Positions 9,272 to 62,093 of a stretch of DNA of 64,000 bases are shown here, piece by piece. The first letter of the stretch is position 1. The number at the start of each line of letters is the position of its first letter. The translations under genes and the position numbers were made by a program. This DNA is from Escherichia phage AV123: the sequence record OR352953.1; one strand, given 5' to 3'. Under the pieces are notes generated by a model, which saw nothing but the letters and a program-made list of their open reading frames with translations, was not told where the DNA came from and did no database searches.

Positions 9272-9282
9272 AGGAGAGTGAT

Positions 9283-9716: not shown

Positions 9717-9968
9717 ATGATTCAGTTTCAAAAAGGTCAAAAGATGACAGTTCACGATGCAGAGGAAATGGAGTTTGCACTTAAACTTCTCGAAAATGCT
9801 GGGTTTGTGTGGATCAACGGTGGAGAGAAGCCTACAGCTTGGCTTCCGCATGAGAAAATAGCCAACCACACCTTCCCTGATAGTATCAATTGGCATTCTG
9901 ATGGTAAGATTTGCCGTGGAAGTTACCCAACAGGTGTTGAGTGGACTATTAAATTAGGAGGGCTTTAA
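9717..9968 (+). CDS. hypothetical protein
   Basis: 83 aa; AAGGGG RBS. Confidence 0.5.
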   Translation: MIQFQKGQKMTVHDAEEMEFALKLLENAGFVWINGGEKPTAWLPHEKIANHTFPDSINWHSDGKICRGSYPTGVEWTIKLGGL

Positions 9969-9969
9969 T

Positions 9970-10308
9970 ATGTTTAGTAAAGAAATGAGAGAAGTAATTG
10001 CCACTTTGGTAGTTGATCATGGTGTTGAAGTTGAGCGTCACGTTTGGAACGATGAACCTCCTTTCTTCGATTTGGCATCACGAGCTAAAAGTCATATGCA
10101 CCTGCTGGAAGACGGTAATGAGTTTGTTCTCCGTATGCGTTATGATCGAGAGTTTCGAATTCCGCTTGACACTGAACCAGATGGTGTAGTAATGTGGTTG
10201 GCAGAACATTTCGCATACGATGCACTACATGGAAGAAGTTTTGGTAATGAGCGTTGGGATGCCATTTGTCGTAAGCATAATATTGAACCAGAGTACGGAG
10301 TTTTATAA
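9970..10308 (+). CDS. hypothetical protein
   Basis: 112 aa. Confidence 0.5.
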   Translation: MFSKEMREVIATLVVDHGVEVERHVWNDEPPFFDLASRAKSHMHLLEDGNEFVLRMRYDREFRIPLDTEPDGVVMWLAEHFAYDALHGRSFGNERWDAICRKHNIEPEYGVL

Positions 10309-12345: not shown

Positions 12346-12361
12346 GTAAGCCAGCAAATAA

Positions 12362-12390
12362 AAACCCGCTCCGGCGGGTTTTCTTGTATT
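12362..12390 (+). terminator. rho-independent terminator
   Basis: CCCGCTCCGGCGGG hairpin followed by TTTTCTTG. Confidence 0.6.
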
Positions 12391-12419
12391 GATGCCAGAT
12401 TTAATAAGAGGAGTAATAG

Positions 12420-13409
12420 ATGACAGCACCAAAATCATGGGAACAATATAAAGAAGAGTGTATACCAATAGCAGAGAGTAAGCAAATCCAAATCTTAGGA
12501 TGGACGGGACAATGGAAAGGGGTCCACACAAAACTTGATTTGTTGTGCCATTGTGGTTATAAATGGGATACTACAAGTATTAACAGTTTTAAATGTGGTA
12601 GCGGTTGTCCACAATGTAGGAGGAAGAATATAAGGAAGTCACAAACAATGTCCGACGATCAACATATTGCAGATTTCTTTTCTACAGGGGAATTTAAGGA
12701 AGGCACTATCTTCACTAACACAGGAACACGGGGTAAAGGATGTAGGAATATTATCTGGATGGTTGAATGTCCTGTTTGCTCTCATGATGAATATGTTCAA
12801 GCAGGTGTTTGTGATGGTAAATTTTACTCTGAAGGAGATAACCTTAAACGAGGGTATATTCCGTGTCGTTGTGGGAACTATCGGTATACAGAAGACCAGA
12901 TCACCTATAGGGTAAAAAAGGAAGTAGAAGGGAAAGGGTATGTCTGGGTAGATTGGATTACCAAACCCTCTTCTATAGGTAAGTTTAAATATCTTTGTCT
13001 TGTGCATGGTGAGCAGATAGGGAGTGCTAATAATTTATTAAGCCTCGGTCGAGGTTGTCCTATGTGTGCTGGTCATAGTCAGCAGCAGTTATATATTAAT
13101 ATTGTTAAGGATGATAATATTATAGTTGCTCTTAAGTTTGGTATAGCTAAAGATAGTGATAGGCGATTAAACATTCAAAATAGCCGTAATCTGTTTTTTA
13201 TGGAACGTATTTGTTTATATGATTTTAGCACAGTGAAACAGTGTAAGGCTGCTGAAAGAGCTATAAAGAAAAAATTAAAAACTGGTATTTTAACAGCAAG
13301 AGAGTTGAAAGACGGTCATACAGAAACAGTAAGTGTTTCTGATTTGGAAAATCTTCAAAAAATTATTACACAATATGGTGGCAAGTTAGTATACAATAAG
13401 GAGGTGTAA
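12420..13409 (+). CDS. zinc-ribbon repeat protein with C-terminal T5orf172/GIY-YIG-like domain
   Basis: four C..C pairs; C-terminal YINIV..ALKFGIAKDSDRRL fits T5orf172 pattern. Confidence 0.45.
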   Translation: MTAPKSWEQYKEECIPIAESKQIQILGWTGQWKGVHTKLDLLCHCGYKWDTTSINSFKCGSGCPQCRRKNIRKSQTMSDDQHIADFFSTGEFKEGTIFTNTGTRGKGCRNIIWMVECPVCSHDEYVQAGVCDGKFYSEGDNLKRGYIPCRCGNYRYTEDQITYRVKKEVEGKGYVWVDWITKPSSIGKFKYLCLVHGEQIGSANNLLSLGRGCPMCAGHSQQQLYINIVKDDNIIVALKFGIAKDSDRRLNIQNSRNLFFMERICLYDFSTVKQCKAAERAIKKKLKTGILTARELKDGHTETVSVSDLENLQKIITQYGGKLVYNKEV

Positions 13410-25948: not shown

Positions 25949-26241
25949 TAATGTTTAGAACATTGGCTATAATATAAGCTATCCAATAATAAACATGGTG
26001 AATAATGACACTGATGATCATAATGCGCCACCCTCCAGGGGGCGCTATGTGAACACAAAGAAATCTTTCTTGTCAAGAAAAATATCACCATTATTGCGCA
26101 AAATTATTTATATCTGAATAGATGATTTTTCATACTATTGCCCCCTTGATTATTACCATTTGTTGAGCCTACTTTCTTAAAAGCGCAATAAAATAGAATT
26201 ATATTGATTTTTAGTCGGTTTTATAGTACAGAAAGTATGCA

Positions 26242-26456
26242 AATGATAATCATTATCAGCTATCTTCCACGGGTGGCACTATTTCACACCAGATCATTTC
26301 ATTTGGCAAGGTGTATATAGATGTTTAGACTTGCCAAGCCATTGATTTCCTTAGAATTTATCTGTTTTGTTGTGAGTAGTACCTTTCTTGCTTAGAAAAT
26401 AATCAAAAGTCTTATAAGTCATTGAATGATAATACAAATGATAATTATTCTCATTG
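26242..26456. promoter_or_regulatory. Fur-box-like sites
   Basis: AATGATAATCATTATC at 26242 (15/15 to Fur core) and GAATGATAAT..ATGATAATTATTCTCATTG at 26424. Confidence 0.5.
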
Positions 26457-26814
26457 ATATTTGAGGGGGACGGTCGGCAGAAATCGGGGGGTGCTGAAAA
26501 TCGCGTTAAGCACCTCTCGCAAGCGAGCAGTATTTTGCGGCAAGTTATTGATATTATTGACTTTACGCTTATGAAAAGGGGGTGTGTCGAAATAAATCGG
26601 GTATACCGGAAAATTTTTGTGGCATAGATATTTATTTGTCTATATTATGTACAAAGGGGTGTGTTAAAAATAATAGGTATATATAGAATAATTGATAGGG
26701 AATATCTATACTAATTCCTCCATTAATGATATTCCTATGCTACTGCTCTTGTAATAGATGAAAAGACGCTGTATGATGTGTGGCATGAAACGTAAACTTA
26801 TAAAGGAGTCTGAT

Positions 26815-30537: not shown

Positions 30538-31223
30538 TGAAAGAGATTATGTTTGAAGGGCATCGTTACGAAGTTCCAGACAATGCAAATTTCATGGCTC
30601 GTGATATCACTGGAGATGTGTTCTGGTTTGAAGATGAACCTGTGTTTTCTTCGAACAAACACTGGTTTTCACAACAATCTTCTTCGGAAAATATGACTTT
30701 TGGCTACGTAGAGCCTAAAGTGCGCTGCAAAGCAGCTTCTTCTTTGGTAAAAATTTCCCAAGATGATCAAGAAAATACTCCAGATGTTGTTAGTGCACTA
30801 CTGAAATACATTGCAGAACTTGAGAATAAAATTAAAGAAGCAGAAACTAAGGTGAAAGCACGATCAGCCATCATTGAAGCTATGTCTGAACGTATCTTAG
30901 AGCTAGAAGATTTGTGTGGAGAGGCTTATCAAGTGGTCGGTGCACTGGCTTATGAAGCACAAATGTTTGAAACTTCAGAACAAGTTTCACATATGTTAGA
31001 TAATTTAAGTGAATGTAAAATGATTCATGATGATGTATTGCCATTTTGTTGCAATGTTAACAAAACAGAGCAAACAGAAGATTCAGAAACAGTTTATGTT
31101 CCGCTGATGTGTGTTCCAGATCATTTAAAAGGTGTATTCTCTTGTAAATGGTCACTGTTGAGCGTTACTAATTGTGGTGAAAACTATTCTGCCAACATTG
31201 AATTGCTAAAACACGTTAAATAA
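30537..31223 (+). CDS. hypothetical protein with central coiled coil
   Basis: 228 aa. Confidence 0.6.
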   Translation: MKEIMFEGHRYEVPDNANFMARDITGDVFWFEDEPVFSSNKHWFSQQSSSENMTFGYVEPKVRCKAASSLVKISQDDQENTPDVVSALLKYIAELENKIKEAETKVKARSAIIEAMSERILELEDLCGEAYQVVGALAYEAQMFETSEQVSHMLDNLSECKMIHDDVLPFCCNVNKTEQTEDSETVYVPLMCVPDHLKGVFSCKWSLLSVTNCGENYSANIELLKHVK

Positions 31224-31233
31224 GGAGAGTAAT

Positions 31234-31638
31234 ATGTGGTCTGTTAAAATCAAATATAATGCGCAGTATTATGGTGGAAAGCCTTACGAAGTTGTTATTT
31301 GTGACTGTATCTCTAAAGAAGTTGCACAGCTTTGTGGCACTGGTGTTAGTGAAGCTATGAACAAAATGCATAACTCGACTGTGCGTTACCTGGATCAAGA
31401 TATTCCAGAAGATGTAAATGACTATGCTTACGAAGTTATTTACAGTGAAGGTAAGAAGCTCTCTATTGAAGATGCACTTAAAGCACTACCTGCTATGTGC
31501 AGCCCAACACCAGAAGCAGTTAAAGAGATTTTACCAGAATCCAACCCCGATGAATATGCCTCTATGGTTGCTTCAGACATGTGGAATCTCTGTCGAGAAA
31601 CTATGATTAAAAATCTTGTGGAAATGGCGCATGAGTAA
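31234..31638 (+). CDS. hypothetical protein
   Basis: 134 aa; AAGGAGAG RBS. Confidence 0.6.
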   Translation: MWSVKIKYNAQYYGGKPYEVVICDCISKEVAQLCGTGVSEAMNKMHNSTVRYLDQDIPEDVNDYAYEVIYSEGKKLSIEDALKALPAMCSPTPEAVKEILPESNPDEYASMVASDMWNLCRETMIKNLVEMAHE

Positions 31639-31849
31639 AACACACTTTATACATCCGTTTGATCCAAAGAACAAGGCGGTTATACACCGCCGTTGGACTG
31701 AAACGCGCATTACAAAATGTCCTGTGCCAGCAGCACAGGAATATAACAAAACATATAAAGCAGAATTTGTGGAGTACACCTTTGTAAATAACAAAGGGAA
31801 GGAGGTTTATGTTCCAGAATACTGCCTTTGGATAAAATGGGAGGAATAA
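31631..31849 (+). CDS. hypothetical protein
   Basis: start reset from TTG 31616 to ATG 31631. Confidence 0.45.
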   Translation: MSKTHFIHPFDPKNKAVIHRRWTETRITKCPVPAAQEYNKTYKAEFVEYTFVNNKGKEVYVPEYCLWIKWEE

Positions 31850-38951: not shown

Positions 38952-39764
38952 TTACTTAGTCAAATGATCTTCTATCATTTTTATGAAAGCAGGATTGCTA
39001 AAAGCATCTGCTGCCTTTTCTCTATAAACAAAGACTCCTCTATCTTCGTAAAGAAGAGTTTCTTCGTAATTAATTCCTGGGTTAACAACAATCATTTTTG
39101 TACCCATAGTAAGTGCAGGGAATAATTCCCAATTAAAATTGATAACTTGGTTTGAACATCCTACTACAACAACCAAATCTTGCATGGTCAAAGTATCAAA
39201 CAAGTGAGCCATATCTGCATACAAAGGTGCAGCCTCACCAAAAAATACAACATTAGGCTTCACCCAGTTATAATCATCTATGTTTATACTATTGTAACCA
39301 ATGTCTACCAGTGTTTTGTAATCTCCAGGATGCATACGGTAAACTACTTCAGGGAGATACCCGTGCACGTGAATAACAGAATCCCTGTCCACACCTGCTC
39401 GCTCTAGTAGATCATCGACGTTTGTTGTCAAGTTTACTACTTGGTTAGGATATTCCTTAAACCACTTTGCTATTTGAATATGTGCAGCATTAGGTTGTAC
39501 ATCTTTAAGCTCAACACGTCTTTTGTTATAAAATTCGTGTGTTTTGGCATATAAGTCCATACCGTTCTCGTCTACACCACCGACCACTGGAAGATCTGGA
39601 GATGTTCTCACACGATAACCTGCTTGGAAAGCTCCAATATCGCAGACCTCTTCTAAGTCATATTCTTCCCATAAGGCACGACCACTATCTGTGTCTGTTC
39701 GGAACGTTCGAATCCCACTGTCTGCACTTAAACCTGCGCCACTAACAAAAATTACTCTTCGCAT
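38952..39764 (-). CDS. Sir2-family NAD-dependent deacylase/ADP-ribosyltransferase-like protein
   Basis: GAGLSADSGIRTFR, TTNVDDL, HVHG, VVVVGCS sirtuin motifs; 270 aa. Confidence 0.7.
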   Translation of the reverse strand: MRRVIFVSGAGLSADSGIRTFRTDTDSGRALWEEYDLEEVCDIGAFQAGYRVRTSPDLPVVGGVDENGMDLYAKTHEFYNKRRVELKDVQPNAAHIQIAKWFKEYPNQVVNLTTNVDDLLERAGVDRDSVIHVHGYLPEVVYRMHPGDYKTLVDIGYNSINIDDYNWVKPNVVFFGEAAPLYADMAHLFDTLTMQDLVVVVGCSNQVINFNWELFPALTMGTKMIVVNPGINYEETLLYEDRGVFVYREKAADAFSNPAFIKMIEDHLTK

Positions 39765-39775
39765 TCAATATCCTC

Positions 39776-40306
39776 TTAGTAATCATCATCCCAAGAAGAT
39801 GCGTCGTAACGCTCTTCCTCTTCGAAATCCCAATTAATTTCTACTCCAAAATCTAAAAACAATTTAACAATGTTTTCTGTAGAGTAGTATTTATCATAAG
39901 CATTAGCTAGTTCCCAATACTTGTCACTCAATTTTTTATATTTAGGATCATTATAGTCATAATCTACTTTATAACCATAATCATACATCTCTTGTTCAGC
40001 TTTAAGCATAGCTTCTGGTGTAAGAAGATTAGGGAACGGACGATTTCTTTCTTTTAACTTAGAAGCAATCCAGTTTGCAACATTCGCCACTTCACCATCT
40101 CGATTATCACCTAAACAACTTGCATAATCTCCATCTTCGTAAGTGCCTAAATCCCCACTAACTTCATGTACAATAGACGAATACGATCCACACGTTTCAC
40201 AATCTGAAAAAGTGTCTACTGTTGTAATATCAATAGATAAAACTGGTAAAGCCATAGCTTCTTTCACACAAGCCTCCTCATATAATAACATGTCATCAAA
40301 ACCCAT
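39776..40306 (-). CDS. acidic hypothetical protein
   Basis: start reset from TTG 40321 to ATG 40304-40306 (GGAGGA RBS). Confidence 0.5.
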   Translation of the reverse strand: MGFDDMLLYEEACVKEAMALPVLSIDITTVDTFSDCETCGSYSSIVHEVSGDLGTYEDGDYASCLGDNRDGEVANVANWIASKLKERNRPFPNLLTPEAMLKAEQEMYDYGYKVDYDYNDPKYKKLSDKYWELANAYDKYYSTENIVKLFLDFGVEINWDFEEEERYDASSWDDDY

Positions 40307-40973: not shown

Positions 40974-41111
40974 TTACCCCCAATGTATATGGGAAATTAA
41001 CCAAAAGATAAATTCCCAAAAACACCAACCAAGAAAAGTTAATGGAATTATAAAGGCTATCAGAGCAGTCTTCCAGCCTTTCCACAATGTTTCCACTATT
41101 CCTCCATACAT
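40974..41111 (-). CDS. small membrane protein (45 aa), tentative
   Basis: hand-translated; overlaps 3' end of methyltransferase gene by 16 nt; weak RBS. Confidence 0.3.
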   Translation of the reverse strand: MYGGIVETLWKGWKTALIAFIIPLTFLGWCFWEFIFWLISHIHWG

Positions 41112-42085
41112 TTAAGAATATGTGCAATGACAGGTATAGTCCAACCGTTACCTAACATCTTATATGCTTGTGTGTTACTACTCACTTTAAAGTAGTCATC
41201 TGGCACACCTTGCAAACGGCAACACTCTTTAACGGTTAACTTTCTATAATGTACGCCTTCACTCAATTTTTCAAAAGCATCTAAATATCTTCCAGGTGGA
41301 ATGTAAGCTAATAGTACGTCTTTCGGCACAGTCGTGAGGCAACGAGTTTTTTCACTGTCCTGAACTTCCAAACAATGTACCAAACGATCAGTTTTAGATG
41401 TACTACGTTTGCCATTTTCATTAATTCTACGCCCATATATTGCTGCTGGATAAAAAACCAGTTGTCTGCGACTCTTTTCAAAATACTGTTCTATATTGCC
41501 ACCTTTGGCATAATTTGCATCTATGCAATAAGCCTTATCTCTGTCTACAATACTATCATCTTCAATGATATCTTGCAATACTTCATTGGTAATCTCCCAG
41601 GGTTTTATTTCCCAGTTGCACCAGTATAAACGTTGTCTATTCTGTGCCGTGAAATCTGCGGAGTTAATGAATACGGGATCAACACCTAAGTAACTTGTGA
41701 TCACGTTTTCCCACTCCACTTTCATCTTAACGTTTTCAAGCATGAACTTAACATTAGGGTTAAACTTTTTAATATGTTCAAGAATTTCAACATATTCGAA
41801 GAATAGCTTAGATCGCGGATCTTGAAAGTTCAAACCCTTACCAGAAGAAGAGAAGCCTTGACACGGACTACCACCTAACAAAAGATCAATTTCTCCCCAC
41901 GGGATATCCCATTCTCTCCATTTTGTAACATCACCTAACTGAATAATATCTGGAAAATTTGCTTGGCTTTCAGCTATGGCAAATTTGTCTAATTCTGAAG
42001 CATAATATGTATCTACTTCAATACCTGCACTTTTTAGCGCAAGCATTCCTCCTGACATACCATCAAAAAGACTTAAAACTTTCAT
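41096..42085 (-). CDS. DNA cytosine-5 methyltransferase
   Basis: motif I LFDGMSGG, motif IV GGSPCQGFS, motif VI ENV; 329 aa. Confidence 0.85.
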   Translation of the reverse strand: MKVLSLFDGMSGGMLALKSAGIEVDTYYASELDKFAIAESQANFPDIIQLGDVTKWREWDIPWGEIDLLLGGSPCQGFSSSGKGLNFQDPRSKLFFEYVEILEHIKKFNPNVKFMLENVKMKVEWENVITSYLGVDPVFINSADFTAQNRQRLYWCNWEIKPWEITNEVLQDIIEDDSIVDRDKAYCIDANYAKGGNIEQYFEKSRRQLVFYPAAIYGRRINENGKRSTSKTDRLVHCLEVQDSEKTRCLTTVPKDVLLAYIPPGRYLDAFEKLSEGVHYRKLTVKECCRLQGVPDDYFKVSSNTQAYKMLGNGWTIPVIAHILKCMEE

Positions 42086-46125: not shown

Positions 46126-46788
46126 TTATTTAATATTCAATTTTGCACAAAGACGTTGTACCGCTTTGGCATCGAACAAACTCCCACGAATAGTTCTCTT
46201 TCCTGATTCATTCAGATGCTTTGCAATCGTCATATATGGCGTTTTACAAGCTCTGTATGCAACTAAAGAATCTTTTAAAGAAAGCGCAAACTCTCTTGAG
46301 CGTTTTGCTTCTTCCGTTTTCGTATAATCTGTTCTTTTGTATTTAGGGTTTGCTGCACCAAGAAGCGTTCCCTTCGCTTTTGCTACCTTAAGGCTCTTCT
46401 TAACACGATCAGATATTGCACGAGCCTCTTCTTCTGCCAGAACTGCTAAAATATTTATTATCATATTTTCAGCGGAGGGCATAGTTGCTATTCGTACATT
46501 AATCATCTCTAATAAGGTTGCAACAGAGGCTGTGTTACGTCCAAGACGGTCAACCTTAGCAACAACAAGTGTAGCACCTGTTTCTTTGCAAAGATTAACA
46601 GCTTTTACAAGCTCTCTACGTTGCTTCCAATCGCCTTTACCCGAATAAAACTCTGCAAAGCTACCTACAATAGTATAATTTTCTTGTGAATCCAGGAAGC
46701 GTTGAATATCTGCTTCCTGTGATTCTATACCATACTGGTTGCCTTGTTGTTTCTTCTTAGAAAGTCGATGATATAGTACAAACTTCAT
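46126..46788 (-). CDS. serine recombinase (resolvase/invertase family)
   Basis: N-terminal YHRLSKKKQ catalytic-Ser context, resolvase-like core; GGAGGG RBS; 220 aa. Confidence 0.7.
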   Translation of the reverse strand: MKFVLYHRLSKKKQQGNQYGIESQEADIQRFLDSQENYTIVGSFAEFYSGKGDWKQRRELVKAVNLCKETGATLVVAKVDRLGRNTASVATLLEMINVRIATMPSAENMIINILAVLAEEEARAISDRVKKSLKVAKAKGTLLGAANPKYKRTDYTKTEEAKRSREFALSLKDSLVAYRACKTPYMTIAKHLNESGKRTIRGSLFDAKAVQRLCAKLNIK

Positions 46789-48260: not shown

Positions 48261-48914
48261 TTAATTATCAGAGGACACTTTATCAAGTTTTTCAGAGACT
48301 GTCAATACTTTTTCTTGTGATTCTTTCATTTCTGCTAAAATACTTTCAGCTTCATCACTATCAGGATCACCAGTCAACAGCATACTAATTAGTTGCTCCT
48401 TGCTGAAGTTCAGAATATCTTCCGCTGTTAACTCCAGTTGTTCTTCGATCTCTTCGATAAAAGTTTCACCGCCTGAAAAAGCATCTCGCAGTTTTGCAAC
48501 TTCCATCGCTTCTTCTGGGGTTGCCCCAGCGTCTAAAGCTGCTAAAGCAAAATCTGCCCCACTACCAACAGCATAATAATCTTCAGTTAAAGGATATGCT
48601 CGCGTTGGATTGTTACCCTCGTGCATATAAATTTTACCGTCTGGGTGAACAACTAATGCCACAAACTCTTCATCTTCTTTATCAGGATCTGACTGGATCA
48701 CCAAACCTGGGATTGTCTCTTGTGCTGCTTGGCATTGTAAGTTTTGTTCGAACCAAGAAAAGAAAGTCAGGATAGAAGACAGACGTCCTGCACCACCAAC
48801 AAGGTAATCCCCAATTTTACGCACTTTCTTGAAATTTAAAGTGTCTACACGACTACCTACTGTTACTTTACCATCAGATAGAATTTTGTTATGTGTTGCA
48901 ATAATTGTTGTCAT
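48261..48914 (-). CDS. hslV: HslV-like N-terminal-Thr peptidase with acidic C-terminal extension
   Basis: MTTII N-terminus, KKVRKI, LVGGAG, GSGADFALAA align to HslV/ClpQ pattern; about 45 aa acidic tail. Confidence 0.6.
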   Translation of the reverse strand: MTTIIATHNKILSDGKVTVGSRVDTLNFKKVRKIGDYLVGGAGRLSSILTFFSWFEQNLQCQAAQETIPGLVIQSDPDKEDEEFVALVVHPDGKIYMHEGNNPTRAYPLTEDYYAVGSGADFALAALDAGATPEEAMEVAKLRDAFSGGETFIEEIEEQLELTAEDILNFSKEQLISMLLTGDPDSDEAESILAEMKESQEKVLTVSEKLDKVSSDN

Positions 48915-50893: not shown

Positions 50894-51154
50894 TTACTCC
50901 GCAATCTGAGCCATGAATTCACGTAGTTCAGAAAAACCTCCTACGTGGGTTAGCTGTTCACCATCTTCCACAAAAATCTGAGGAAATGTGCGTGGTAGAA
51001 CACCTGTTTTCTCTACAACCAGATTCTGAATCTGATCTAAAGAATAGTCTTCATCTAAGGTAAGATATTTAAAATCCTGTTCACGCTGTTCTAGTAGAAT
51101 CTTAGCGTTAGTGCAGAAAGGACAATTTGGTTTACCGTAGATAATAAAATTCAT
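50894..51154 (-). CDS. glutaredoxin/thioredoxin-like redoxin
   Basis: CPFC active site; start reset from GTG to ATG 51152-51154 (AAGGAG RBS). Confidence 0.75.
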   Translation of the reverse strand: MNFIIYGKPNCPFCTNAKILLEQREQDFKYLTLDEDYSLDQIQNLVVEKTGVLPRTFPQIFVEDGEQLTHVGGFSELREFMAQIAE

Positions 51155-51156
51155 TT

Positions 51157-51987
51157 TCACTCCTTGTTTAAAAGTATAGTTAAAGTTCTTACAATACCGC
51201 TATCAACACTTCGCGGATTTAAAGTAGGATCTGTTTTTAAATAAGATGTTGCTGGTCTGACTGCTTTGGAATTATAGGTTGAAGCAGATACAGGATTAAC
51301 TGTAACAGACAAATCTACAACAAGAAATATCTTTCGTGCAAAATCATACCAAGAAATATAATCTGCACCTGCATAGTGTACAATTTTACTATTTACACCA
51401 TCTTTTACAAGTTTAAAAATTGTTTCTGCAAGATCAGGTGCATAAGTAGGACATGATAAATGATCACATACTACATTAAATTCTTTTTGACCACCGTTGT
51501 AGCGTTCCAACATAGTTTTCAAAAAGTTATGTCCAAATTCACTATAAACAGAAGCTGTTCTGATAATAAGTGCTGTAGGACAAACTGTTTGTACTAAAGT
51601 TTCACCTAATTGTTTACTGTAACCGTAGGTGTTCAAGGGGTTTGTTTTACTATCTTCTGTGCCAGCAACATGCCCATCAAAAACATAGTCTGTTGAAATA
51701 TGTACAAACTGTATCAGTAAATCATTACATGCTTTGGCAATGTTTGTTGCACCGTATGCATTAACATTTATACAGGTGTTAACATCTTCTTCAGCTTTAT
51801 CTACTGCCGTGTAAGCCGCACAATTCACAACAACATCAGGCACATGCTGTACAAGACTATTCATAACATCTTTAAAGTTGGTAATGTCTACATCACTTGC
51901 TTCAATCAAAATAACATCTTCGGGCGCAACTTTTGCCAAAGACTGTCCTAATTGACCTTTTGAACCAAAGATTAAAAATTTTGTCAA
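51157..51987 (-). CDS. rmlD: dTDP-4-dehydrorhamnose reductase
   Basis: FGSKGQLG Rossmann motif, RmlD-like length; TTG start overlapping rmlC stop. Confidence 0.75.
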   Translation of the reverse strand: MTKFLIFGSKGQLGQSLAKVAPEDVILIEASDVDITNFKDVMNSLVQHVPDVVVNCAAYTAVDKAEEDVNTCINVNAYGATNIAKACNDLLIQFVHISTDYVFDGHVAGTEDSKTNPLNTYGYSKQLGETLVQTVCPTALIIRTASVYSEFGHNFLKTMLERYNGGQKEFNVVCDHLSCPTYAPDLAETIFKLVKDGVNSKIVHYAGADYISWYDFARKIFLVVDLSVTVNPVSASTYNSKAVRPATSYLKTDPTLNPRSVDSGIVRTLTILLNKE

Positions 51988-52538
51988 AATATGATCTCCT
52001 TTAGTGTTTTGGCTTGCTGATCTTTTTGTGACAAGATAGGTTTAAAATTAATATCATTAAAGATTAAATCAAAACCCCAATCAATATTGATATCTGGATC
52101 ATTCCACGCAAGACTACACTCTGAAGTCGGATCGTAATACTCTGTACATTTATATTCAAAATCAGCAATGTCACTAATCACAACAAAGCCATGAGCGAAA
52201 CCAGGAGGAATCCAAAATTGTGTTTTATTCTTTTCAGATAAGAGAACACCTACCCATTCTCCAAATGTTGGACTACCAACCCTAATATCTACAGCAACAT
52301 CATAAACTTCACCACGAACACAACGTACTAACTTCCCTTGTGGGTTTTTCTTTTGAAAATGAAGCCCACGTAGAACTCCTCGAATAGAACGTGAATGGTT
52401 GTCTTGGACAAAGTTTTGTTTACCTATGTATTGATCATATAAAGCCTGATTAAAACTTTCTAAGAAAAAACCACGTTCATCTCCGTAAACGTCAGGTTGA
52501 ATGATCAACAAATCTTCGATTTTTGTTGCTTGAATCAT
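51984..52538 (-). CDS. rmlC: dTDP-4-dehydrorhamnose 3,5-epimerase
   Basis: GDERGFF..F and RGLHFQ cupin motifs; 184 aa. Confidence 0.8.
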   Translation of the reverse strand: MIQATKIEDLLIIQPDVYGDERGFFLESFNQALYDQYIGKQNFVQDNHSRSIRGVLRGLHFQKKNPQGKLVRCVRGEVYDVAVDIRVGSPTFGEWVGVLLSEKNKTQFWIPPGFAHGFVVISDIADFEYKCTEYYDPTSECSLAWNDPDINIDWGFDLIFNDINFKPILSQKDQQAKTLKEIIF

Positions 52539-52550
52539 TTAATTCCCCCT

Positions 52551-53420
52551 TTATTTTAATTTAAGTAAATACTTACCGTAGTCTGTTTTACTTAAAACCT
52601 CTCCAGAACTTTTTACAGAGTCTAAAGTAATCCATTCATTTTTAAAAGCAATCTCTTCCAGGCATGCAACCTTCATACCTTGTTGCTTTTCTATTGCATG
52701 AACAAATTGAGATGCTTCCATAAGACTTTCATGTGTTCCTGTATCCAGCCAAGTGAAACCTCTTCCTAGTTTACAGACACGTAAAGCCTTTTCTTTCCAG
52801 TACATATCATTTATATCTGTAATCTCTAACTCCCCTCTAGCAGAAGGTTTAACGCTTTTAGCTTTCTGTATAACAGAATTATCGTAAAAGTACAAGCCTG
52901 TGATTGCATAGTTGCTTTTTGGTGCTTTTGGTTTTTCTTCAATACTCACCACTGTACCTTCAGAATCAAACTCAACAACACCAAATCTTTCAGGATCATT
53001 TACGTGATACCCAAAAATATTAGCTCCACCATTCTTCTCAATATGTTCTTTAGCAGAATCTAAAATGCTACCAAAACTCTGACCAAAGAATAAATTATCA
53101 CCTAGCACAAGTGCTACAGAATCTTCACCAATAAAGTTCTCACCAATAATAAACGCTTCTGCTAAACCTCTTGGGCTATCCTGTATTGCATACTGTAGGG
53201 AAATACCAAAAGAGGAACCATCACCTAGAAGATTTACAAAATTAATTTGATCTTCTGGTGTTGTAATTATTAGTATTTCCCTAATTCCAGAAAGCATTAG
53301 GACAGAGAGTGGATAATAAATCATAGGCTTATCATAAATTGGTAATAGTTGTTTACTAACCCCTTTAGTAACTGGGTAAAGTCTTGTTCCACTACCACCT
53401 GCTAAGATAATACCTTTCAT
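52551..53420 (-). CDS. rmlA: glucose-1-phosphate thymidylyltransferase
   Basis: [19 protein letters not shown]-terminus; 289 aa. Confidence 0.85.
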
Positions 53421-53428
53421 ACTCCTCC

Positions 53429-54418
53429 TTAAACTTTATTTTCCCACCACTCTTTGTTATCTACATACCAATCAATGGTTGAATAAAGTTTTTCTTCAAA
53501 TGTGCCTTTAGCTTTCCACCCTAATTCCTTTTCAATCTTATAAGGATTCACTTCATATCTTAGATCATGTCCAGGTCTATCTGTAACCATCTCAATTAGG
53601 CTACAAGCATCTGTTTCAGATGGATACACCGCATCCATATAATCACAAATCATATAGATTACATCAATATTAGTTCTAGGGTTTCTGCTCCCAATATTAT
53701 ATGTTTCTCCAGATTTGCCTTTAGTTACTACTAGGTGTAATGCTTCTGCGTGATCGTCAACGTATAACCAGTCTCTTACTTGAAGACCATTGCCATAAAC
53801 AGGGATTGGTTTATTCATCAAGATATTTGTTATCGTTTTAGGTATTAGTTTTTCTGGATGATGATATGCTCCAAAATTATTTGAACAATTTGTTATAACT
53901 GTCGGAATACCATAAGTACGATGCCACGCTCTTACCAAATGATCGCTTGCTGCCTTAGATGCAGCATATGGACTACTTGGCTTATAAGGATTCTGTTCTG
54001 TAAACGGATAATCCCCTTCTTCCATATCACCATATACTTCATCTGTTGAAATATGATGGAACATTTTAAGATTTGATTTATCTCCCATTAAACGAACAGC
54101 TTCTAGGAGATTAAATGTCCCAACAATATTTGAATTTATAAAAACACTCGGTGATGCTATTGAATTATCTACGTGACTTTCTGCTGCAAGATGCATTATA
54201 TAATCTGGATTAACATCTGCCACAATCTTAGCAGTTAACTGCGCATTTGTCAAGTCAACACGACAAAACTTTACATTGGGTGTTTCTGATAAATTTCTAG
54301 GGTCTGAAGCGTAACCCCATTTATCTATAACGTAAATATCATTTTTAGTATTTTTAGCCAGGAAACGAACTACCGCACTTCCAATAAAGCCTAAACCACC
54401 TGTTACTAAGTATTTCAT
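53429..54418 (-). CDS. rmlB: dTDP-glucose 4,6-dehydratase
   Basis: TGGLGFIGS Rossmann motif, YAASKAASD catalytic YxxxK; 329 aa. Confidence 0.85.
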
Positions 54419-54612
54419 TTAGTCTCCTTCCAATTATTCCCTTCAGTAAAAATAATACCTTCATAAAACAACCATCTGGAACCTTTTTCAACAGGAACAG
54501 GAAGCTCTTCTTCAGTAAAGTTATAAACCTCTCTAGCATCTTCTAAAAGTGATGCAAATGTTTTTGGACTTACTGTTACGCGAGGAGCATTGATCAGTTG
54601 ATCTAGCATCAT
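54415..54612 (-). CDS. small hypothetical protein
   Basis: start reset to ATG 54610-54612 (AAGGAGG RBS). Confidence 0.45.
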   Translation of the reverse strand: MMLDQLINAPRVTVSPKTFASLLEDAREVYNFTEEELPVPVEKGSRWLFYEGIIFTEGNNWKETK

Positions 54613-55273: not shown

Positions 55274-55484
55274 CTTTTTCTCCTTTGATAATTTCAAACT
55301 TGGCTACACCATTAACTATGATATGACCGCAAGACATAACTCCTAGCCAATGATCACCATTCTTTTTTAAACGTTTGCCGTAAACATCACAGAAACCATT
55401 CTGTAATTCGGAAGCCTCGTAAGAGGCTCCCTTTTCGAAAACGTCTTTGAAGTCAGAAATTAATCCAACACAAAGTAGTTTCAT
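55266..55484 (-). CDS. small hypothetical protein
   Basis: 72 aa. Confidence 0.45.
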   Translation of the reverse strand: MKLLCVGLISDFKDVFEKGASYEASELQNGFCDVYGKRLKKNGDHWLGVMSCGHIIVNGVAKFEIIKGEKDD

Positions 55485-56569
55485 TAAAAGTCTAACTCCT
55501 CGTCATCACTTACATCTTTATTTGCTGAATTCAGTTTGTAAGCTGTAATTTGGATCTCCTGTGCTGCTGCTTGAATTTGATCTGGGTTTAACCAAACATC
55601 CATCCAAGGCAGTGGACTTTTCTTCGGTGCACGGAATTTGTGTTTCATTTTCAGTCTGCGATAGATAGGTGCAGCATTGAAGTAAACCCAAAGTTTGAAC
55701 AACTCTGCGTTACCACCAACGATAACCCTTCCTTCACTAAACAGATAGTCACACCAATCTTCCTCTTGTCCAACTACCGTGTCAAGAATTTCTGTCAGAA
55801 CGTCGATATTATCTTCGTATACTTTTCTCCAAACAGGATCTTTCAGCAGTGCATCAATAATAGCATAATCCATTTTAACGTGCAATAGTTCATCCAACAT
55901 AATTTTTTGAATGAGTTTAGCTGCACCTACAAACAATTGCTGCTCTGCTAAGGCAAATGTTGCAGCAAAAGAGGAGATGAACTGAATACCTTCCAGACCG
56001 ATAAGTGCAATCATTCCTTTCAGGATCAGTAGACGAAGGTTATCATCCTTCTCAATCAGACCTAGAGCATATTTATGTCCTGCCTCTGCCAGATCACTCA
56101 TTATCTCTTCAACTATACCCATCCTCTGGAAGATTCTTTCATTCTCCATGATCTGATCGATAACTTCATTTGGATTAGGGATACACTGACGAATAATTTC
56201 AGAATATGTTAAAGCGTGTAAAACTTCCATTTCTGATTGCTTCATCATCATTGCACATGCTTCGTTGTTGCTTAAAAATGGTGCAAACAAAGTGATGATT
56301 GATTTAGCAAGTGAATCATTTTCCCATTGGAAAGATAGGTTTTTGATCATAACATCATAGTTGCTTTTAGAACAAGCTACGAAATCTTTTCGTGTCTGAT
56401 CTAAGTTTACTTCGTTTTCATCCCAATCTTGCTGTTTTTGTAGTTTGTACAGACGATGCATTTCTGGGTATGTTACGTTAATAGAATCAAAAATACCTAA
56501 CTGTTCGCCCAAAAATACAGGGTAGAAACCTTCTTTGTAAGTGTCGTTGTATAAATTAATTGCTGCCAT
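55484..56569 (-). CDS. nrdB: ribonucleotide reductase class Ia beta subunit
   Basis: 361 aa; di-iron ligand context and C-terminal acidic tail typical of R2. Confidence 0.8.
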   Translation of the reverse strand: MAAINLYNDTYKEGFYPVFLGEQLGIFDSINVTYPEMHRLYKLQKQQDWDENEVNLDQTRKDFVACSKSNYDVMIKNLSFQWENDSLAKSIITLFAPFLSNNEACAMMMKQSEMEVLHALTYSEIIRQCIPNPNEVIDQIMENERIFQRMGIVEEIMSDLAEAGHKYALGLIEKDDNLRLLILKGMIALIGLEGIQFISSFAATFALAEQQLFVGAAKLIQKIMLDELLHVKMDYAIIDALLKDPVWRKVYEDNIDVLTEILDTVVGQEEDWCDYLFSEGRVIVGGNAELFKLWVYFNAAPIYRRLKMKHKFRAPKKSPLPWMDVWLNPDQIQAAAQEIQITAYKLNSANKDVSDDEELDF

Positions 56570-56891
56570 TTAAATCCTCCACAATATCACACATTGCTTT
56601 TATTGTATCAATGTGTTCTCTCTCCATACCATTCTCTATGTAAGCCTTCTCTAATGCGTTCCATACACTCTTTGTGAGTAGTACAGTAACCTCTCCCTCA
56701 TATCTTGCCCTGGTTAAAGCATACCAGGTAGCTTCGGGATCATTGGAAGCCCATATTTCAACACTGGAAAATTGAAAACCTGCAATATGATGACAACACC
56801 AATCGAATGTAAAATCTTTACTATCTACCAGTGTATAATTGCCCCAACGCCTTTGTGGTGTTGCCCCAGGTAATACAACTAATGTAGGCAT
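56556..56891 (-). CDS. hypothetical protein
   Basis: start reset to ATG 56889-56891 (AAGGAGG RBS). Confidence 0.5.
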   Translation of the reverse strand: MPTLVVLPGATPQRRWGNYTLVDSKDFTFDWCCHHIAGFQFSSVEIWASNDPEATWYALTRARYEGEVTVLLTKSVWNALEKAYIENGMEREHIDTIKAMCDIVEDLNGSN

Positions 56892-56904
56892 ATTCCTCCT
56901 TAAG

Positions 56905-56926
56905 AAATGGGGGACAAAGCCCCCTA
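56905..56926 (-). terminator. candidate terminator/attenuator (minus strand)
   Basis: GGGGGCTTTGTCCCCC then ATTTCTT on minus strand. Confidence 0.45.
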
Positions 56927-56932
56927 GCTTCA

Positions 56933-59194
56933 TTACATCTTACAAGCCTCACAACCGGATTCTTCATCCTCTTGAGCGAGTGAGGTTGCTGATTTTGTTC
57001 GACTATTTAGATAGTACAAAGATTTACCACCAAGTTTTGCAAACTGAAGGATATATTGCATTTCTGATTTAATGGATAAACGACCACCTTCCATCTTAGA
57101 ATAGTCAATCCACTTGTCACATGATGCACCTTGATCTAAGAATTTAGTCAACAGTCCATATGCTTCAGCCATATCTTTATCTGGCGTATCCCAAGCCGAT
57201 TGGTAAATATCTTTTAGTTTATCGTAATCTGGCACAATAAACAAGACATTACCTTTTTGGCTTTGTTTATAAACTATAGTATCACGTACAGGATACACAG
57301 AGTTAGTCGTATTACTTACAAGACTACTGGACTCATTCGGAGCAATAGCTGCTAATACACTATTTCGGATACCACCTTGTGCAATTATATCTTGTCGTAA
57401 ACCTTCCCAATCCATTTTAAGTTTAAAATTGCCAATATCGTCTACAGCTTTAGCGTAGGTATCAATAGGCAACCATCCTTCAGGCCATTTGGTTTTATGC
57501 ATCCATTCTGCATTACCTTTCTCTTTTGCCAAACGAAGAGAAGCTCTTGCTAACCAGTAATAATGTCTTTCTGCTAATTCGTGAATTAGTTTTTTGCCGT
57601 AAGGATCTGAATAAGTAACAAAATTACTTGCCAGATAATGTGCCAGGTTTGTAATACCTACACCGATAGACCTACGTGCTTTAGCAGTGATTTCGTTATG
57701 TTTAAACGGATACTGCATTGTTTCAATAACATTATCAATAGTTAGAACGGTATAATATGCAACATCTTCATATTCTTCTGGTGTAACACGACCAGCTACA
57801 ATAGAAGACAGGAAACATAATGCCAATTCTTGATCTTCTGTATTCTCACCTGTGAAAAGATCAGTCATACTGTGAAATGCTTTCGTAGGCAAGAAAATTT
57901 CTTGGCACAAGTTTGACTGATAAATAACATCCTTAAACGGAGTATGCTTATTAGCATTATCCGCAAAGAACATATAAATACGTCCTGTCTCTGCTCTTTG
58001 TGTAATAATTTCTGCCAGAAGATCTCGTGCTTTTACAAACTTCTTCTTAATTCGTTTGCGACTAACTTTTTCATATACTTCTTCAAACTCTTCCTCGCTT
58101 TTATAAAGCGCCTCATAGAGTTCTGGTGCTTCGTCATAACTAACTAGCATCCAATCTTTACCTTTTGCTGCACGGCGCAGGAAAGCATTGTTTACTACGA
58201 TAGAGTAATCAAGTTTATCTACTCGTTTTTCACTAACAGTAGTTGGGTTTTTCAAACGTACCAGATCTTCAAAATCAGGTTCTAATATTGTAAACGTTAC
58301 TGTTGCACTTCCACCACGACTTGCTTGTTTTGATGCTCCAACACTTGTCTCCATCCATTTCAGATATGGTAAAAGACCACCGTGAACAATACGGTTGTTC
58401 TTAACACCTTGTCCTGTAGCACGGGTTTGGAGGTTAACACCAATACCTGCATTATTCAATGTATATTCATGAGCAAGATAGTTAGCAATTGCTAAAGATT
58501 CTGCTGTATCATCTGCTCTAAACAGACAACAAGAAGCACTACCTTTAATCTTAGTACGCAACGTTGTTAAATAAGGTGATGGTAAATTAATCTTAAGATC
58601 ACTTACGTAGGTATATAGACGTTTAATGTCTTCTACTCTGCGATCTTTTGGTTGGATTTCCATTACCTTCATTGCTACACCAATGAATAAAAATTGTGGT
58701 GATTCAAAAACCACATCATTGATCGCATCTTTCACAAGATACTTATCAACCATCTGGCGCAGTACGGAATAACCATAAGTTAGGTTTTTATCATGATTGA
58801 TAATTTTACCAATCTCAATAATTTCTTCTTCTGTATAATTCATTTTCCCCCAATAGCCTTTACTTACAGACATATTGTAGAAATCCAGGAGGGAGGGGAT
58901 ATTGTGATATCCCCCATGAGCCTGTTTATAGATCATACCAAGAAGTAACCGACCTGCCATATCACTATATGCCTGATCTTTCTTATCAATACATGCTGCT
59001 ATCATAGCTTTATGTAAATCACGAGTAGGCACACCGTCGTAACAACGTTTAACAGCTTCGAGTTCGATTTCAGACCAATTTAATTTACCAGCAGCAAACT
59101 CTGACCATTTACGAAGTTTTTCTGGATTAAATTCTTCTTTCTTGCCGTTTGTTTTTGTTACATAACGGATAGATTTGCTTAGATACTGAGTCAC
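56933..59194 (-). CDS. nrdA: ribonucleotide reductase class Ia alpha subunit
   Basis: 753 aa, N-terminal ATP-cone-like region, C-terminal CEACKM tail; GTG start with AGGAGAGG RBS. Confidence 0.85.
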   Translation of the reverse strand: MTQYLSKSIRYVTKTNGKKEEFNPEKLRKWSEFAAGKLNWSEIELEAVKRCYDGVPTRDLHKAMIAACIDKKDQAYSDMAGRLLLGMIYKQAHGGYHNIPSLLDFYNMSVSKGYWGKMNYTEEEIIEIGKIINHDKNLTYGYSVLRQMVDKYLVKDAINDVVFESPQFLFIGVAMKVMEIQPKDRRVEDIKRLYTYVSDLKINLPSPYLTTLRTKIKGSASCCLFRADDTAESLAIANYLAHEYTLNNAGIGVNLQTRATGQGVKNNRIVHGGLLPYLKWMETSVGASKQASRGGSATVTFTILEPDFEDLVRLKNPTTVSEKRVDKLDYSIVVNNAFLRRAAKGKDWMLVSYDEAPELYEALYKSEEEFEEVYEKVSRKRIKKKFVKARDLLAEIITQRAETGRIYMFFADNANKHTPFKDVIYQSNLCQEIFLPTKAFHSMTDLFTGENTEDQELALCFLSSIVAGRVTPEEYEDVAYYTVLTIDNVIETMQYPFKHNEITAKARRSIGVGITNLAHYLASNFVTYSDPYGKKLIHELAERHYYWLARASLRLAKEKGNAEWMHKTKWPEGWLPIDTYAKAVDDIGNFKLKMDWEGLRQDIIAQGGIRNSVLAAIAPNESSSLVSNTTNSVYPVRDTIVYKQSQKGNVLFIVPDYDKLKDIYQSAWDTPDKDMAEAYGLLTKFLDQGASCDKWIDYSKMEGGRLSIKSEMQYILQFAKLGGKSLYYLNSRTKSATSLAQEDEESGCEACKM

Positions 59195-59974: not shown

Positions 59975-60946
59975 TCACCATTTTGTATGGTTAGTCAAAA
60001 GTTGACGATGTTGAATCCAACCACAGAAGTTTCCACTCCACAAACGATGTTTACGATCCATATGTGTAATACCTTCTTCCCAAGAAGTAGGGAACGGAGG
60101 AATATTAATACCACCTTTCTGTTGTTTTAATCCTGACAAATCCATTTCTTTCATTGGTGTTGCCTGGTGTTCAAACGGAGATGCATGTACCTTCTGTCCA
60201 GACAGCAAACGAGAATAGATATCCAATGCTTTATCTTTAGTATCATTCAATTTACGATAACTTACCTGAGCGCAACAAGAAGCTGAGATAGCTTTTGCTT
60301 CATCTTCTGTCAACATTTTCTCGTTGGAGAAGGTTTCACCCAAGAAATAACGGATCATACCAGTTTCTGGATCTCGATCACGATTAACGTAAGGTGTATG
60401 CCATTCCCCTGGGAAAAGAAGATATGGTTCAGAAGATTCATACAATTTTTTAATTTCTTTAGCAAGAGCCTCAATAGTAGGATCTGCATCAGCATCTACG
60501 CGCAACCACAAGAAGTTTTCTAGCTCTGTAGTGGTTACTACAGTCTTCATACGCTGGAATGGTTCTAGTAGGCGGTTTGCAACCTGTTTATGATAACCAG
60601 CAAGGGCAAACTCTTCTGCAAAACGTGCAGCACTTAGCGCAGCCAAGTCCCACCATTCTTTTGCAGTGTAACCTGCATCAATCAGGGCATCGTGATCTGT
60701 GCCTTTATCTTGCATACCTGGTTGGTTAGCACCAAAACGATAAGGACGTGCTGGAGATTGCCGTACCATTTCAATTAGAGTTTTAACAGGGATAGCTCGA
60801 CTTGATGCGGCATTACGAGAAAACAAACGATGCGTCATCAATTCAGAGTGAATGATTCGAGGATATTCAAGTTCAAAGGTAACAATATCCTTACCTTCAG
60901 ATGTTTGAGAGTGTGCAATAATTTTTGCTGAAATAGAATTTGTCAT
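59975..60946 (-). CDS. thyX: flavin-dependent thymidylate synthase
   Basis: ThyX motif HRLFSRNAASSRA (RHR...S.R); 323 aa. Confidence 0.8.
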   Translation of the reverse strand: MTNSISAKIIAHSQTSEGKDIVTFELEYPRIIHSELMTHRLFSRNAASSRAIPVKTLIEMVRQSPARPYRFGANQPGMQDKGTDHDALIDAGYTAKEWWDLAALSAARFAEEFALAGYHKQVANRLLEPFQRMKTVVTTTELENFLWLRVDADADPTIEALAKEIKKLYESSEPYLLFPGEWHTPYVNRDRDPETGMIRYFLGETFSNEKMLTEDEAKAISASCCAQVSYRKLNDTKDKALDIYSRLLSGQKVHASPFEHQATPMKEMDLSGLKQQKGGINIPPFPTSWEEGITHMDRKHRLWSGNFCGWIQHRQLLTNHTKW

Positions 60947-60955
60947 TATTTCTCC

Positions 60956-61546
60956 TTAAGGTAGTAAAATACTTTCAATTTCTTCCCACTGATTATCTAA
61001 ACCAGTGATAATTACATTAGGAAGTTTCTTTAACTCTTCCAAGTATGGATCTTCGTAAATAGTGTTGAAATATATTTTCAACGTTTCATCTGGAAATAGG
61101 ACAAGATTTTCAGCCCTATCGTCAATAGTTACGTCGCAAGGTAATAAGTATTTTTCTTTTGTTGCGAAAAAGCCATTACCAGATGTTCTACTAAAGTCCA
61201 CTTTATCTAAAGATCGTGTTACGTGTCTATATTTAGAACTAAGGTGTCCACCCTTAGTGTGGCTTGCTATAGATATATTAGCTCCATTTGCAATTATACG
61301 ATGAACAACATCTGTACTATTAGGTACTACTCCCATAGTATCATATAGATGTTGGTTATCCCAAAAAGAGTAAGGATCTACACCAAATTGCTTTTTAAAA
61401 TCAGGAAAATATTTCGTAATATCATAATGCACAGTCTTTTGTGTCTTATCAAACTTGATATTAGATCTACTTACCGCATTTAACCAACTCAACCATTCTA
61501 CATCGGCAGGGGCTATTACTAAATCCCAATCACATACTAGACGCAT
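60956..61546 (-). CDS. HAD-family 5'(3')-deoxyribonucleotidase-like protein
   Basis: DWDLV (DxDxV) and downstream IDDRAEN motifs; start reset to ATG 61544-61546 (AGGAG RBS). Confidence 0.5.
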   Translation of the reverse strand: MRLVCDWDLVIAPADVEWLSWLNAVSRSNIKFDKTQKTVHYDITKYFPDFKKQFGVDPYSFWDNQHLYDTMGVVPNSTDVVHRIIANGANISIASHTKGGHLSSKYRHVTRSLDKVDFSRTSGNGFFATKEKYLLPCDVTIDDRAENLVLFPDETLKIYFNTIYEDPYLEELKKLPNVIITGLDNQWEEIESILLP

Positions 61547-62093
61547 TATTTCTCCTGTTATAACATTTTCTACACATTGTTTCGTAAATGTCTTCTCCTC
61601 CAATAACAATCTGTTCTTTAGAGTCGATAAGTCTAGCATTGAAAATAGCTTTTCTTCCACATTTACAAATGCTTTTCAATTCTGTAATTGAATCTGCTAT
61701 GGCTAATAACCGTTCAGAACCTTCAAACAATTCTGTAGCAAAATCTGTTTTAAGCCCATAACAGAATACAGGAATATCGTAATTATCTACCACATCTCCA
61801 AGAATGTCAACCATATCTTTAGTTAGGAATTGTGATTCGTCCACAAATACTGCATCTACTGGATTTTCTTTAAGTTGTGTATAAATTTCCAGCATATCTT
61901 CTTTTGTTTTAACTGGTTTTGCTTCCTCTTTAATACCTATCCTAGAAGCAATAGCACAACCAGATCTGGTATCTAAAGCTGAAGTTAAAAGAAGAACTTT
62001 CATATTTCTTTCTTTATAGTTCCAAGCTGTTTGTAGCAGATGTGTGCTTTTACCACTGTTCATCGGACTATATCGGAAATAAAGTTTAGCCAT
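61530..62093 (-). CDS. tdk: thymidine kinase
   Basis: MAKLYFRYSPMNSGKST P-loop, C-terminal CxxC zinc motif; 187 aa. Confidence 0.85.
   Translation of the reverse strand: MAKLYFRYSPMNSGKSTHLLQTAWNYKERNMKVLLLTSALDTRSGCAIASRIGIKEEAKPVKTKEDMLEIYTQLKENPVDAVFVDESQFLTKDMVDILGDVVDNYDIPVFCYGLKTDFATELFEGSERLLAIADSITELKSICKCGRKAIFNARLIDSKEQIVIGGEDIYETMCRKCYNRRNNASSM

Follow-up and report, generated by a model that had tools for sequence, protein, structure and literature searches.

Phages of the genus Justusliebigvirus (phi92-like phages, subfamily Stephanstirmvirinae) encode enzymes for the synthesis of L-rhamnose linked to deoxythymidine diphosphate (dTDP). The pathway was described by Olsen et al. 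in 2020, who called its location in the DNA-metabolism region "peculiar" and suggested rhamnosylation of hydroxymethylated nucleotides (PMC7552041). Maffei et al. in 2021 found the phages "exceptionally susceptible" to restriction-modification "despite a putative dTDP glycosylation machinery" (PMC8594841). We analysed this operon (rmlB-rmlA-rmlC-rmlD) in a stretch of 64,000 nucleotides of Escherichia phage AV123 (OR352953.1), hereafter called the window. Since all four rml genes are annotated in the GenBank records of relatives and the operon is discussed in both papers, it is an already known and documented hallmark of the Stephanstirmvirinae. The locus is the same as that of phi92, phAPEC8, ESCO5 and the phi92-like phages from Danish wastewater and the BASEL collection. 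No substantive difference from the known operon was found, and the window represents one more isolate or record of Justusliebigvirus. Our literature search returned no paper establishing the function of the operon, rhamnosylated phage DNA or glycosylated virions of phi92-like phages, and no nucleoside analysis. The additions made here are a glycosyltransferase (GT) cluster in relatives, a variant with only rmlC and rmlD in Klebsiella phage KP13-26, a negative result for hydroxymethylase and TET enzymes, and pairings of GTs with nucleotide-sugar enzymes in distant phages.

Enterobacteria use the same four enzyme families and the same chemistry in the rfb/rml clusters for O-antigen (rmlBDAC in Salmonella and E. 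coli) and, with rffG and rffH, for enterobacterial common antigen (ECA). The enterobacterial gene order is B-D-A-C, whereas the phage order is B-A-C-D. Unlike its enterobacterial counterparts, the phage operon has no adjacent O-antigen glycosyltransferase, flippase or polymerase; it lies in the nucleotide-metabolism block of a lytic phage and its G+C content is phage-like.

The four genes occupy positions 51157-54418 of the window as contiguous open reading frames (ORFs) on the minus strand, at exactly the coordinates given in an earlier note made from the sequence of the window. They are rmlB (dTDP-glucose 4,6-dehydratase; 53429-54418, 329 aa), rmlA (glucose-1-phosphate thymidylyltransferase; 52551-53420, 289 aa), rmlC (dTDP-4-dehydrorhamnose 3,5-epimerase; 51984-52538, 184 aa) and rmlD (dTDP-4-dehydrorhamnose reductase; 51157-51987, 276 aa). 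The translational coupling that the note had claimed is borne out by the DNA. A small conserved ORF upstream (54415-54612, minus strand, 65 aa; PHROG 27883) is translationally coupled to rmlB, its stop codon overlapping the rmlB start in ATGA. The PHROG match corresponds to residues 32-96 of a longer call of this ORF, annotated as inny_43 in a relative. The gaps between rmlB and rmlA (8 nt) and between rmlA and rmlC (12 nt) contain the Shine-Dalgarno sequences GGAGG and AGGGGG, respectively. The TTG start of rmlD overlaps the stop of rmlC in TTGA and is preceded by AAGGAG 8 nt upstream; the annotation of relatives places rmlD at the same coordinates.

The enzyme assignments in the earlier note had been based on motifs, and the profile searches that it had proposed as a check upheld all four. 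As the threshold for identity we used the curated NCBIfam equivalog cut-offs, cross-checked by Pfam and by alignment to enzymes in the PDB. RmlB scored 443.3 bits against TIGR01181 (cut-off 365.1), with residues 2-327 of 329 covered, and RmlA 471.9 bits against TIGR01207 (cut-off 360.65). RmlC reached 260.4 bits against TIGR01221 (cut-off 155.75) and RmlD 254.2 bits against TIGR01214 (cut-off 224.05). Pfam agreed for all four proteins, with GDP_Man_Dehyd and Epimerase on RmlB, dTDP_sugar_isom on RmlC (2.4e-72) and RmlD_sub_bind on RmlD (1.4e-73). The best PDB matches were in every case solved Rml enzymes (E-values 1e-44 to 1e-125), and those of RmlB, RmlA and RmlC are Salmonella or E. coli enzymes. 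RmlB aligned to 1g1a (394 bits) with GGxGFIGS, the STDE triad and YxxxK (YAASKAASD) in register, and RmlA to 1iim (418 bits) with GGSGTRL, LGDN, EEKP and WLDTGTH conserved. In the alignment of RmlC to 1dzr (219 bits), the His of RGLHFQ, the Lys of QGKLVRC and the Tyr of EYKCTEYY were matched, and a C-terminal SQKD fits, as judged by eye, the position expected for the acid partner. RmlD was closer to 3sc6 and 1vl0 (154 and 153 bits), which we take to be Firmicute enzymes, than to 1kbz (125 bits), presumably the Salmonella enzyme. Its motifs GSKGQLG (GxxGxLG), ISTDYVF and YGYSKQLGE (YGxSK) aligned with those of 3sc6. Judged from sequence, the four genes thus encode what is predicted to be a complete, intact and functional-looking dTDP-L-rhamnose pathway. 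RmlA would convert glucose-1-phosphate and deoxythymidine triphosphate (dTTP) to dTDP-glucose, from which RmlB would form dTDP-4-keto-6-deoxyglucose. RmlC would epimerise this intermediate at C3 and C5, and RmlD would complete the route by reduction to dTDP-beta-L-rhamnose.

The nearest matches of the operon are found in the genus Justusliebigvirus, whose phages share about 99% nucleotide identity with the window. The operon is matched at 95% identity or more by 55 phage records. It is 98.6-99.1% identical to those of Escherichia phages ESCO8, inny, arall, alia, BME3, PaulScherrer and EmilieFrey, among others; in ESCO8, inny, arall and alia (99% nucleotide identity), the gene order and flanks are as in the window. 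Four records named "Campylobacter phage" (MG065639, MG065645, MG065656 and MG065689; host C. jejuni) carry an operon about 99% identical to that of the window, and the GT cluster is also present; these records are probably mislabelled or contaminants. Within the genus, the RmlC protein is 100% identical in relatives and the ratio of nonsynonymous to synonymous polymorphism (pN/pS) of the rml genes lies between 0 and 0.29. In the comparison with phAPEC8, synonymous sites have reached saturation and amino acid identities are 63% for RmlB, 72% for RmlA, 63% for RmlC and 55% for RmlD, compared with 87% for NrdA and 84% for NrdB. By these measures, all four Rml enzymes are under purifying selection, and the Rml proteins are constrained, yet faster-evolving than the ribonucleotide reductase. 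The genes nrdB, small ORFs, rmlBACD, glutaredoxin (grx), a lysis enzyme and phoH are found in the same order and at the same site in Justusliebigvirus, in phAPEC8 and in the more distant Klebsiella phage 05F01, which indicates that the operon is ancestral to the Stephanstirmvirinae. The order at the rmlD-glutaredoxin junction is conserved in phAPEC8, KP13-26 and 05F01, and the operon does not differ in G+C content from the remainder of the window. The subfamily has long possessed the operon and inherited it vertically; it was not captured recently from a host.

A natural variant bears on what is selected. At the syntenic site of Klebsiella phage KP13-26, rmlC and rmlD are present alone, and a tblastn search of the complete 144-kb genome of this phage detected neither RmlA nor RmlB. 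RmlC is matched by eight Klebsiella phage records, and Klebsiella is absent from the ten commonest names among the RmlA matches. In Enterobacteria, dTDP-4-keto-6-deoxyglucose is made by RffH and RffG for ECA, and RmlC and RmlD are enough to make dTDP-L-rhamnose from this intermediate. Retention of rmlC and rmlD where the host supplies the intermediate therefore points to selection on the end product and argues against a dTTP sink.

No glycosyltransferase is encoded within the 64-kb window, as the earlier note had observed, and its proposal to look for one beyond the window was productive. Four consecutive GT genes (GT1-4; two of the GT-A and two of the GT-B class) are found in the genomes of relatives with 98-99% identity. 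In the 98.6% identical relative BME3, they lie at L002 42077-45253, directly before a small acidic ORF, a primase/helicase and a DNA polymerase. Aligned through BME3, the cluster would be located 15.7-18.8 kb beyond position 1 of the window. GT1-4 match PHROG glycosyltransferase families with E-values of 1e-79 to 1e-149. GT1 (187 aa) has a DxD motif (RDID) following a hydrophobic strand. None of the four has a transmembrane segment, and their isoelectric points (pI) are 5.2-5.6, except for GT3 (8.2). GT1-4 have no counterpart among the NCBIfam models; searches of the GT1, GT2 and GT4 sequences against the PDB were without significant result, and profile searches yielded only marginal matches. 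By structure search, GT2 belongs to the GT-A class and GT4 to the GT-B class, a result that does not discriminate between possible acceptors. The nearest solved structures of these two were GlfT2, chondroitin polymerase, RmlT, TarP/TarS, PglA-like enzymes, WbnH, PimA and WaaG.

GT1, GT2 and GT4 occur in about 131-141 phage records, which are essentially the Stephanstirmvirinae that also carry rmlC. At the same site, 05F01 has GT1, GT2 and one GT-B enzyme; KP13-26 has GT1 and a GT3-like enzyme there and a GT2-like gene elsewhere. Other phages show the GT families in company with sugar-modifying genes. In contig L010, an RmlB-like nucleoside diphosphate-sugar 4,6-dehydratase is located inside a GT1...GT2-GT3 cluster ahead of a primase/helicase. 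The metagenomic phage contig L017 (8001-15873) carries a nine-gene cluster of about 8 kb, in which a GT-B homolog is accompanied by a GT2-family enzyme, an epimerase/dehydratase, a radical S-adenosylmethionine/SPASM enzyme and a DegT aminotransferase. In the small, siphovirus-like metagenomic phage contig L011 (9216-11199), a GT-A and GT-B pair directly precedes terminase, portal and capsid genes. The recurrence of the GT families with nucleotide-sugar tailoring enzymes in distant phages supports a relation of donor and consumer between the two gene sets, and phage-encoded glycan biosynthesis cassettes seem to be widespread and uncharacterised. Outside its own lineage, GT2 has remote phage homologs only among the GTs of mycobacteriophages (66 records; 25-27% identity, E-values 1e-6 to 1e-8). 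A Burkholderia homolog of GT4 adjoins an intimin/invasin-like gene, a context that is uninformative. We also considered the small acidic protein encoded after the GT-B gene as an acceptor or carrier. This candidate was dropped, as the protein is conserved only in the myovirus lineage, always before the primase/helicase, and is unrelated to the protein at the same position in L011.

A few kb upstream of the GT cluster of BME3, on the same strand and outside the window, lies a Ter-like gene cluster (L002 29150-39390). It encodes an ATPase, a protein of the haloacid dehalogenase (HAD) family (annotated as "haloacid dehydrogenase"), a phosphoribosyltransferase, a phosphatase, TerC, and TerD-domain and vWA proteins. 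Similar Ter-associated gene sets, for "nucleoside-like metabolites", have been predicted in bacteria.

We consider it somewhat probable that the operon provides dTDP-rhamnose independently of the host, for use by glycosyltransferases of the phage itself. The pathway would guarantee dTDP-L-rhamnose in any host, whatever its O-antigen genotype, and this nucleotide sugar would be the donor for the soluble, cytoplasmic phage GTs, of which two GT-A and two GT-B enzymes are conserved. Together, the Rml pathway and the GT set would build a rhamnose-containing glycan. As to the acceptor, our rough estimate gives a non-DNA molecule made during infection (a virion protein, another protein or a glycoconjugate) slightly less than an even chance, and by the same rough reckoning DNA is an unlikely acceptor; on balance we favour a target other than DNA. 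More specifically, the phage may use its own dTDP-rhamnose and four dedicated GTs to assemble an oligosaccharide with rhamnose on one of its own macromolecules, either virion proteins or DNA, a proposal that is tentative and towards which we lean somewhat negatively. The earlier note had rightly presented the role of the operon as a hypothesis only.

Giant viruses offer a parallel. The UDP (uridine diphosphate)-L-rhamnose route of viruses such as Mimivirus feeds virus-encoded GTs that decorate virion fibrils, so that donor synthesis and transfer are both viral and independent of host glycosylation. The Mimivirus route is based on UDP and two enzymes in a eukaryotic virus, in contrast to the bacterial four-enzyme dTDP route found here. 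Among phages, capsid glycosylation has been reported for cluster F mycobacteriophages (Che8 and Rita), which encode several soluble GTs as the phi92-like group does (PMC11256854). These mycobacteriophages lack a sugar-nucleotide pathway, unlike the phi92-like phages. The remote homologs of GT2 in mycobacteriophages and the position of the L011 GT pair at the head of a structural operon are consistent with a virion acceptor.

Several points weigh against a rhamnose supply for the phage GTs and a virion target. Che8 gp108-110, which are experimentally implicated GTs, gave no match to GT1-4 by BLASTP at E ≤ 1. A Ser/Thr-rich tail is absent from the capsid, decoration and tube proteins. In the genome, some 70 kb separate the rml and GT loci, and their co-distribution is confounded by phylogeny because it is largely that of one lineage. 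The fold matches of the GTs are generic and silent on donor and acceptor specificity. Laboratory hosts of the K-12 type already make dTDP-rhamnose, which makes the operon redundant there.

Among the major virion proteins examined, just one has a low-complexity, hydroxyl-rich terminus. The tail sheath protein of BME3 (L003 29817-31223, outside the window) ends in the Ser/Asn-rich sequence …NRTANSQNSNSSTVSS, a possible candidate site of glycosylation.

Alternatively, one or more of the GTs may transfer rhamnose from dTDP-rhamnose to a modified base in phage DNA as a protection from nucleases, after the models of glucosylated hydroxymethylcytosine (hmC) in T-even phages and of TET-associated glycosylation. 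We regard this as doubtful. Both the rml and the GT loci lie within DNA-metabolism and replication modules. Described hypermodification systems (T-even hmC; clusters of C5-methyltransferase, 5mYOX (TET), GT and epimerase genes) likewise have GT-A and GT-B enzymes near replication genes, and sometimes carry a partner nucleotide-sugar enzyme that supplies the donor (bioRxiv 10.1101/2023.12.21.572611). The dependence of phage DNA GTs on a partner sugar epimerase is a precedent. GT2 gave weak, sub-threshold matches to Pfam TAGT (6.8e-5) and to the PHROG of the T-even beta-glucosyl-HMC-alpha-glucosyltransferase (5e-5); its R...DDD...ED motif pattern resembles the one reported for DNA enzymes of the GT-A class, and its structural neighbours include TarP. 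The window also encodes a C5-cytosine DNA methyltransferase (41096-42085, minus strand; PF00145, 1.1e-43).

However, KP13-26 keeps rmlC, rmlD and GTs without this methyltransferase, which therefore stands outside the conserved set of rml and GT genes. All known pyrimidine hydroxymethylases derive from the ThyA family. The thymidylate synthase of the window is of the ThyX type, not the ThyA type, and thus provides no candidate for such an enzyme; no ThyA-type hydroxymethylase was found. The earlier note had proposed a search for a dUMP/dCMP hydroxymethylase in the rest of the genome. A Pfam search of 58 uncharacterised proteins of the relative BME3 (E ≤ 0.01) detected no TET_JBP, 2OG-oxygenase or Thymidylat_synt domain, though novel enzymes could escape it. 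In addition to this lack of a detected base-hydroxylating enzyme, the phi92-like phages differ from the hypermodification systems in their reported sensitivity to restriction-modification (PMC8594841) and in having a full four-step deoxyhexose donor route located far from the GTs. T4 AGT and BGT rank just 18th and 33rd among the structural neighbours of GT4, and three of the four GTs are acidic. The accessible part of the supplement to a survey of DNA GTs does not list these phages. A donor for DNA glycosylation, one of the roles raised in the earlier note, thus has a published proposal in its favour (PMC7552041), and the missing hydroxymethylase and TET enzymes together with the reported restriction sensitivity against it. 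A route from Dcm through TET to 5-hydroxymethylcytosine (5hmC) and then rhamnosyl-hmC was considered and downgraded, since no TET/JBP was found and the Dcm gene is absent from KP13-26. If the proposed oligosaccharide is placed on DNA, the modification may be sparse or site-specific and made without a ThyA-type hydroxymethylase or TET, with restriction sites still cleavable.

It is also conceivable, but quite improbable, that the phage GTs and dTDP-rhamnose remodel lipopolysaccharide (LPS), O-antigen, ECA or another surface polymer during infection. Superinfection exclusion or avoidance of progeny adsorption to debris could be the benefit. The many tailspikes of these phages recognise surface glycans (PMC11990801), and GT2 and GT4 have enzymes of cell-surface glycans as their closest solved structural matches. 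This fold similarity is generic, however, and no membrane segment is found in the GTs. The annotation includes neither a flippase or polymerase nor a component of the Gtr type. This phage has a strictly lytic lifestyle and a short cycle, whereas known phage seroconversion systems are those of temperate phages. Finally, the earlier note had raised a dTTP sink as a possible role. The operon is almost certainly not a sink or pool regulator for dTTP or glucose-1-phosphate in place of a sugar-donor source. Its position among nrdAB, thyX, tdk and grx would fit such a role, but rmlA, the sole dTTP-consuming step, is missing from KP13-26 and related Klebsiella phages, in which rmlC and rmlD are kept, and purifying selection is seen on all four enzymes, when a sink would require RmlA alone.

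At a cost of five to eight genes, a whole subfamily of coliphages with a broad host range and relevance to therapy keeps both a pathway for the sugar donor and a multi-enzyme GT set. With a virion target, this would be the first glycan-shielded coliphage virion and could bear on antibody recognition and stability in phage therapy; with a DNA target, it would be a new base-modification chemistry. Genetic handles on the question are offered by the Klebsiella phages that have rmlC and rmlD alone, and by the conserved GT cluster.

The operon belongs to a long co-directional block on the minus strand, in which genes for dTTP supply (nrdAB, thyX, tdk and grx) accompany the rml genes. Its flanks are as the earlier note had given them. 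Upstream lie nrdA, a small ORF and nrdB, which encode a class Ia ribonucleotide reductase (55484-59194, from ORFs and the annotation of relatives), followed by genes for a ThyX-type thymidylate synthase, an NT5C-like nucleotidase and thymidine kinase (tdk) at 59975-62093 (Pfam Thy1 3.9e-9, NT5C 7.9e-5 and TK 1.2e-54). Directly downstream of rmlD is glutaredoxin (50894-51154; Pfam Glutaredoxin 9e-12), whose ATG at 51154 is 2 nt past the rmlD stop, and further downstream are a phage lysozyme and PhoH. A scan for promoters and terminators gave matches not above those in shuffled sequence and is therefore uninformative on expression timing. The ThyX-type synthase (59975-60946, minus strand) is unusually long (323 aa); its Pfam Thy1 match is weak and covers only residues 22-170, and it strongly matches PHROG 85. 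The NT5C-like 5'-nucleotidase lies between it and tdk at 60956-61660. The same minus-strand block includes a Sir2-family protein (38952-39764; PF02146, 1.3e-22) and an HslV/proteasome-like peptidase (48261-48914; weak Pfam match), both conserved in relatives. The earlier note had seen no integrase in the window; there is no tyrosine integrase, and a serine recombinase of the resolvase family is present at 46126-46788 (minus strand; Pfam Resolvase 8.4e-22), annotated as "DNA invertase" in BME3 and as "resolvase domain" in 05F01. This recombinase could drive an invertible segment, for example for tail-fibre switching.

The window aligns to BME3 from 26404 down to 398 and then, across the terminal repeat, from 147371 down to 109310. 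Window positions 26158-26580 align to both ends of the BME3 record (146957-147371, the annotated DTR-L, and a region near 146518), and the window therefore covers the genome terminus and the direct terminal repeat. By megablast against BME3, positions 8696-10086, 30543-31843 and 39264-39788 of the window have no match and represent variable islets. The plus strand encodes, at 11218-13409, an AAA/STAND-like ATPase of 375 aa and, after it, a protein of 329 aa that combines CapR-homology and T5orf172 domains. The pair has the look of a defence or counter-defence module rather than that of a replication gene.

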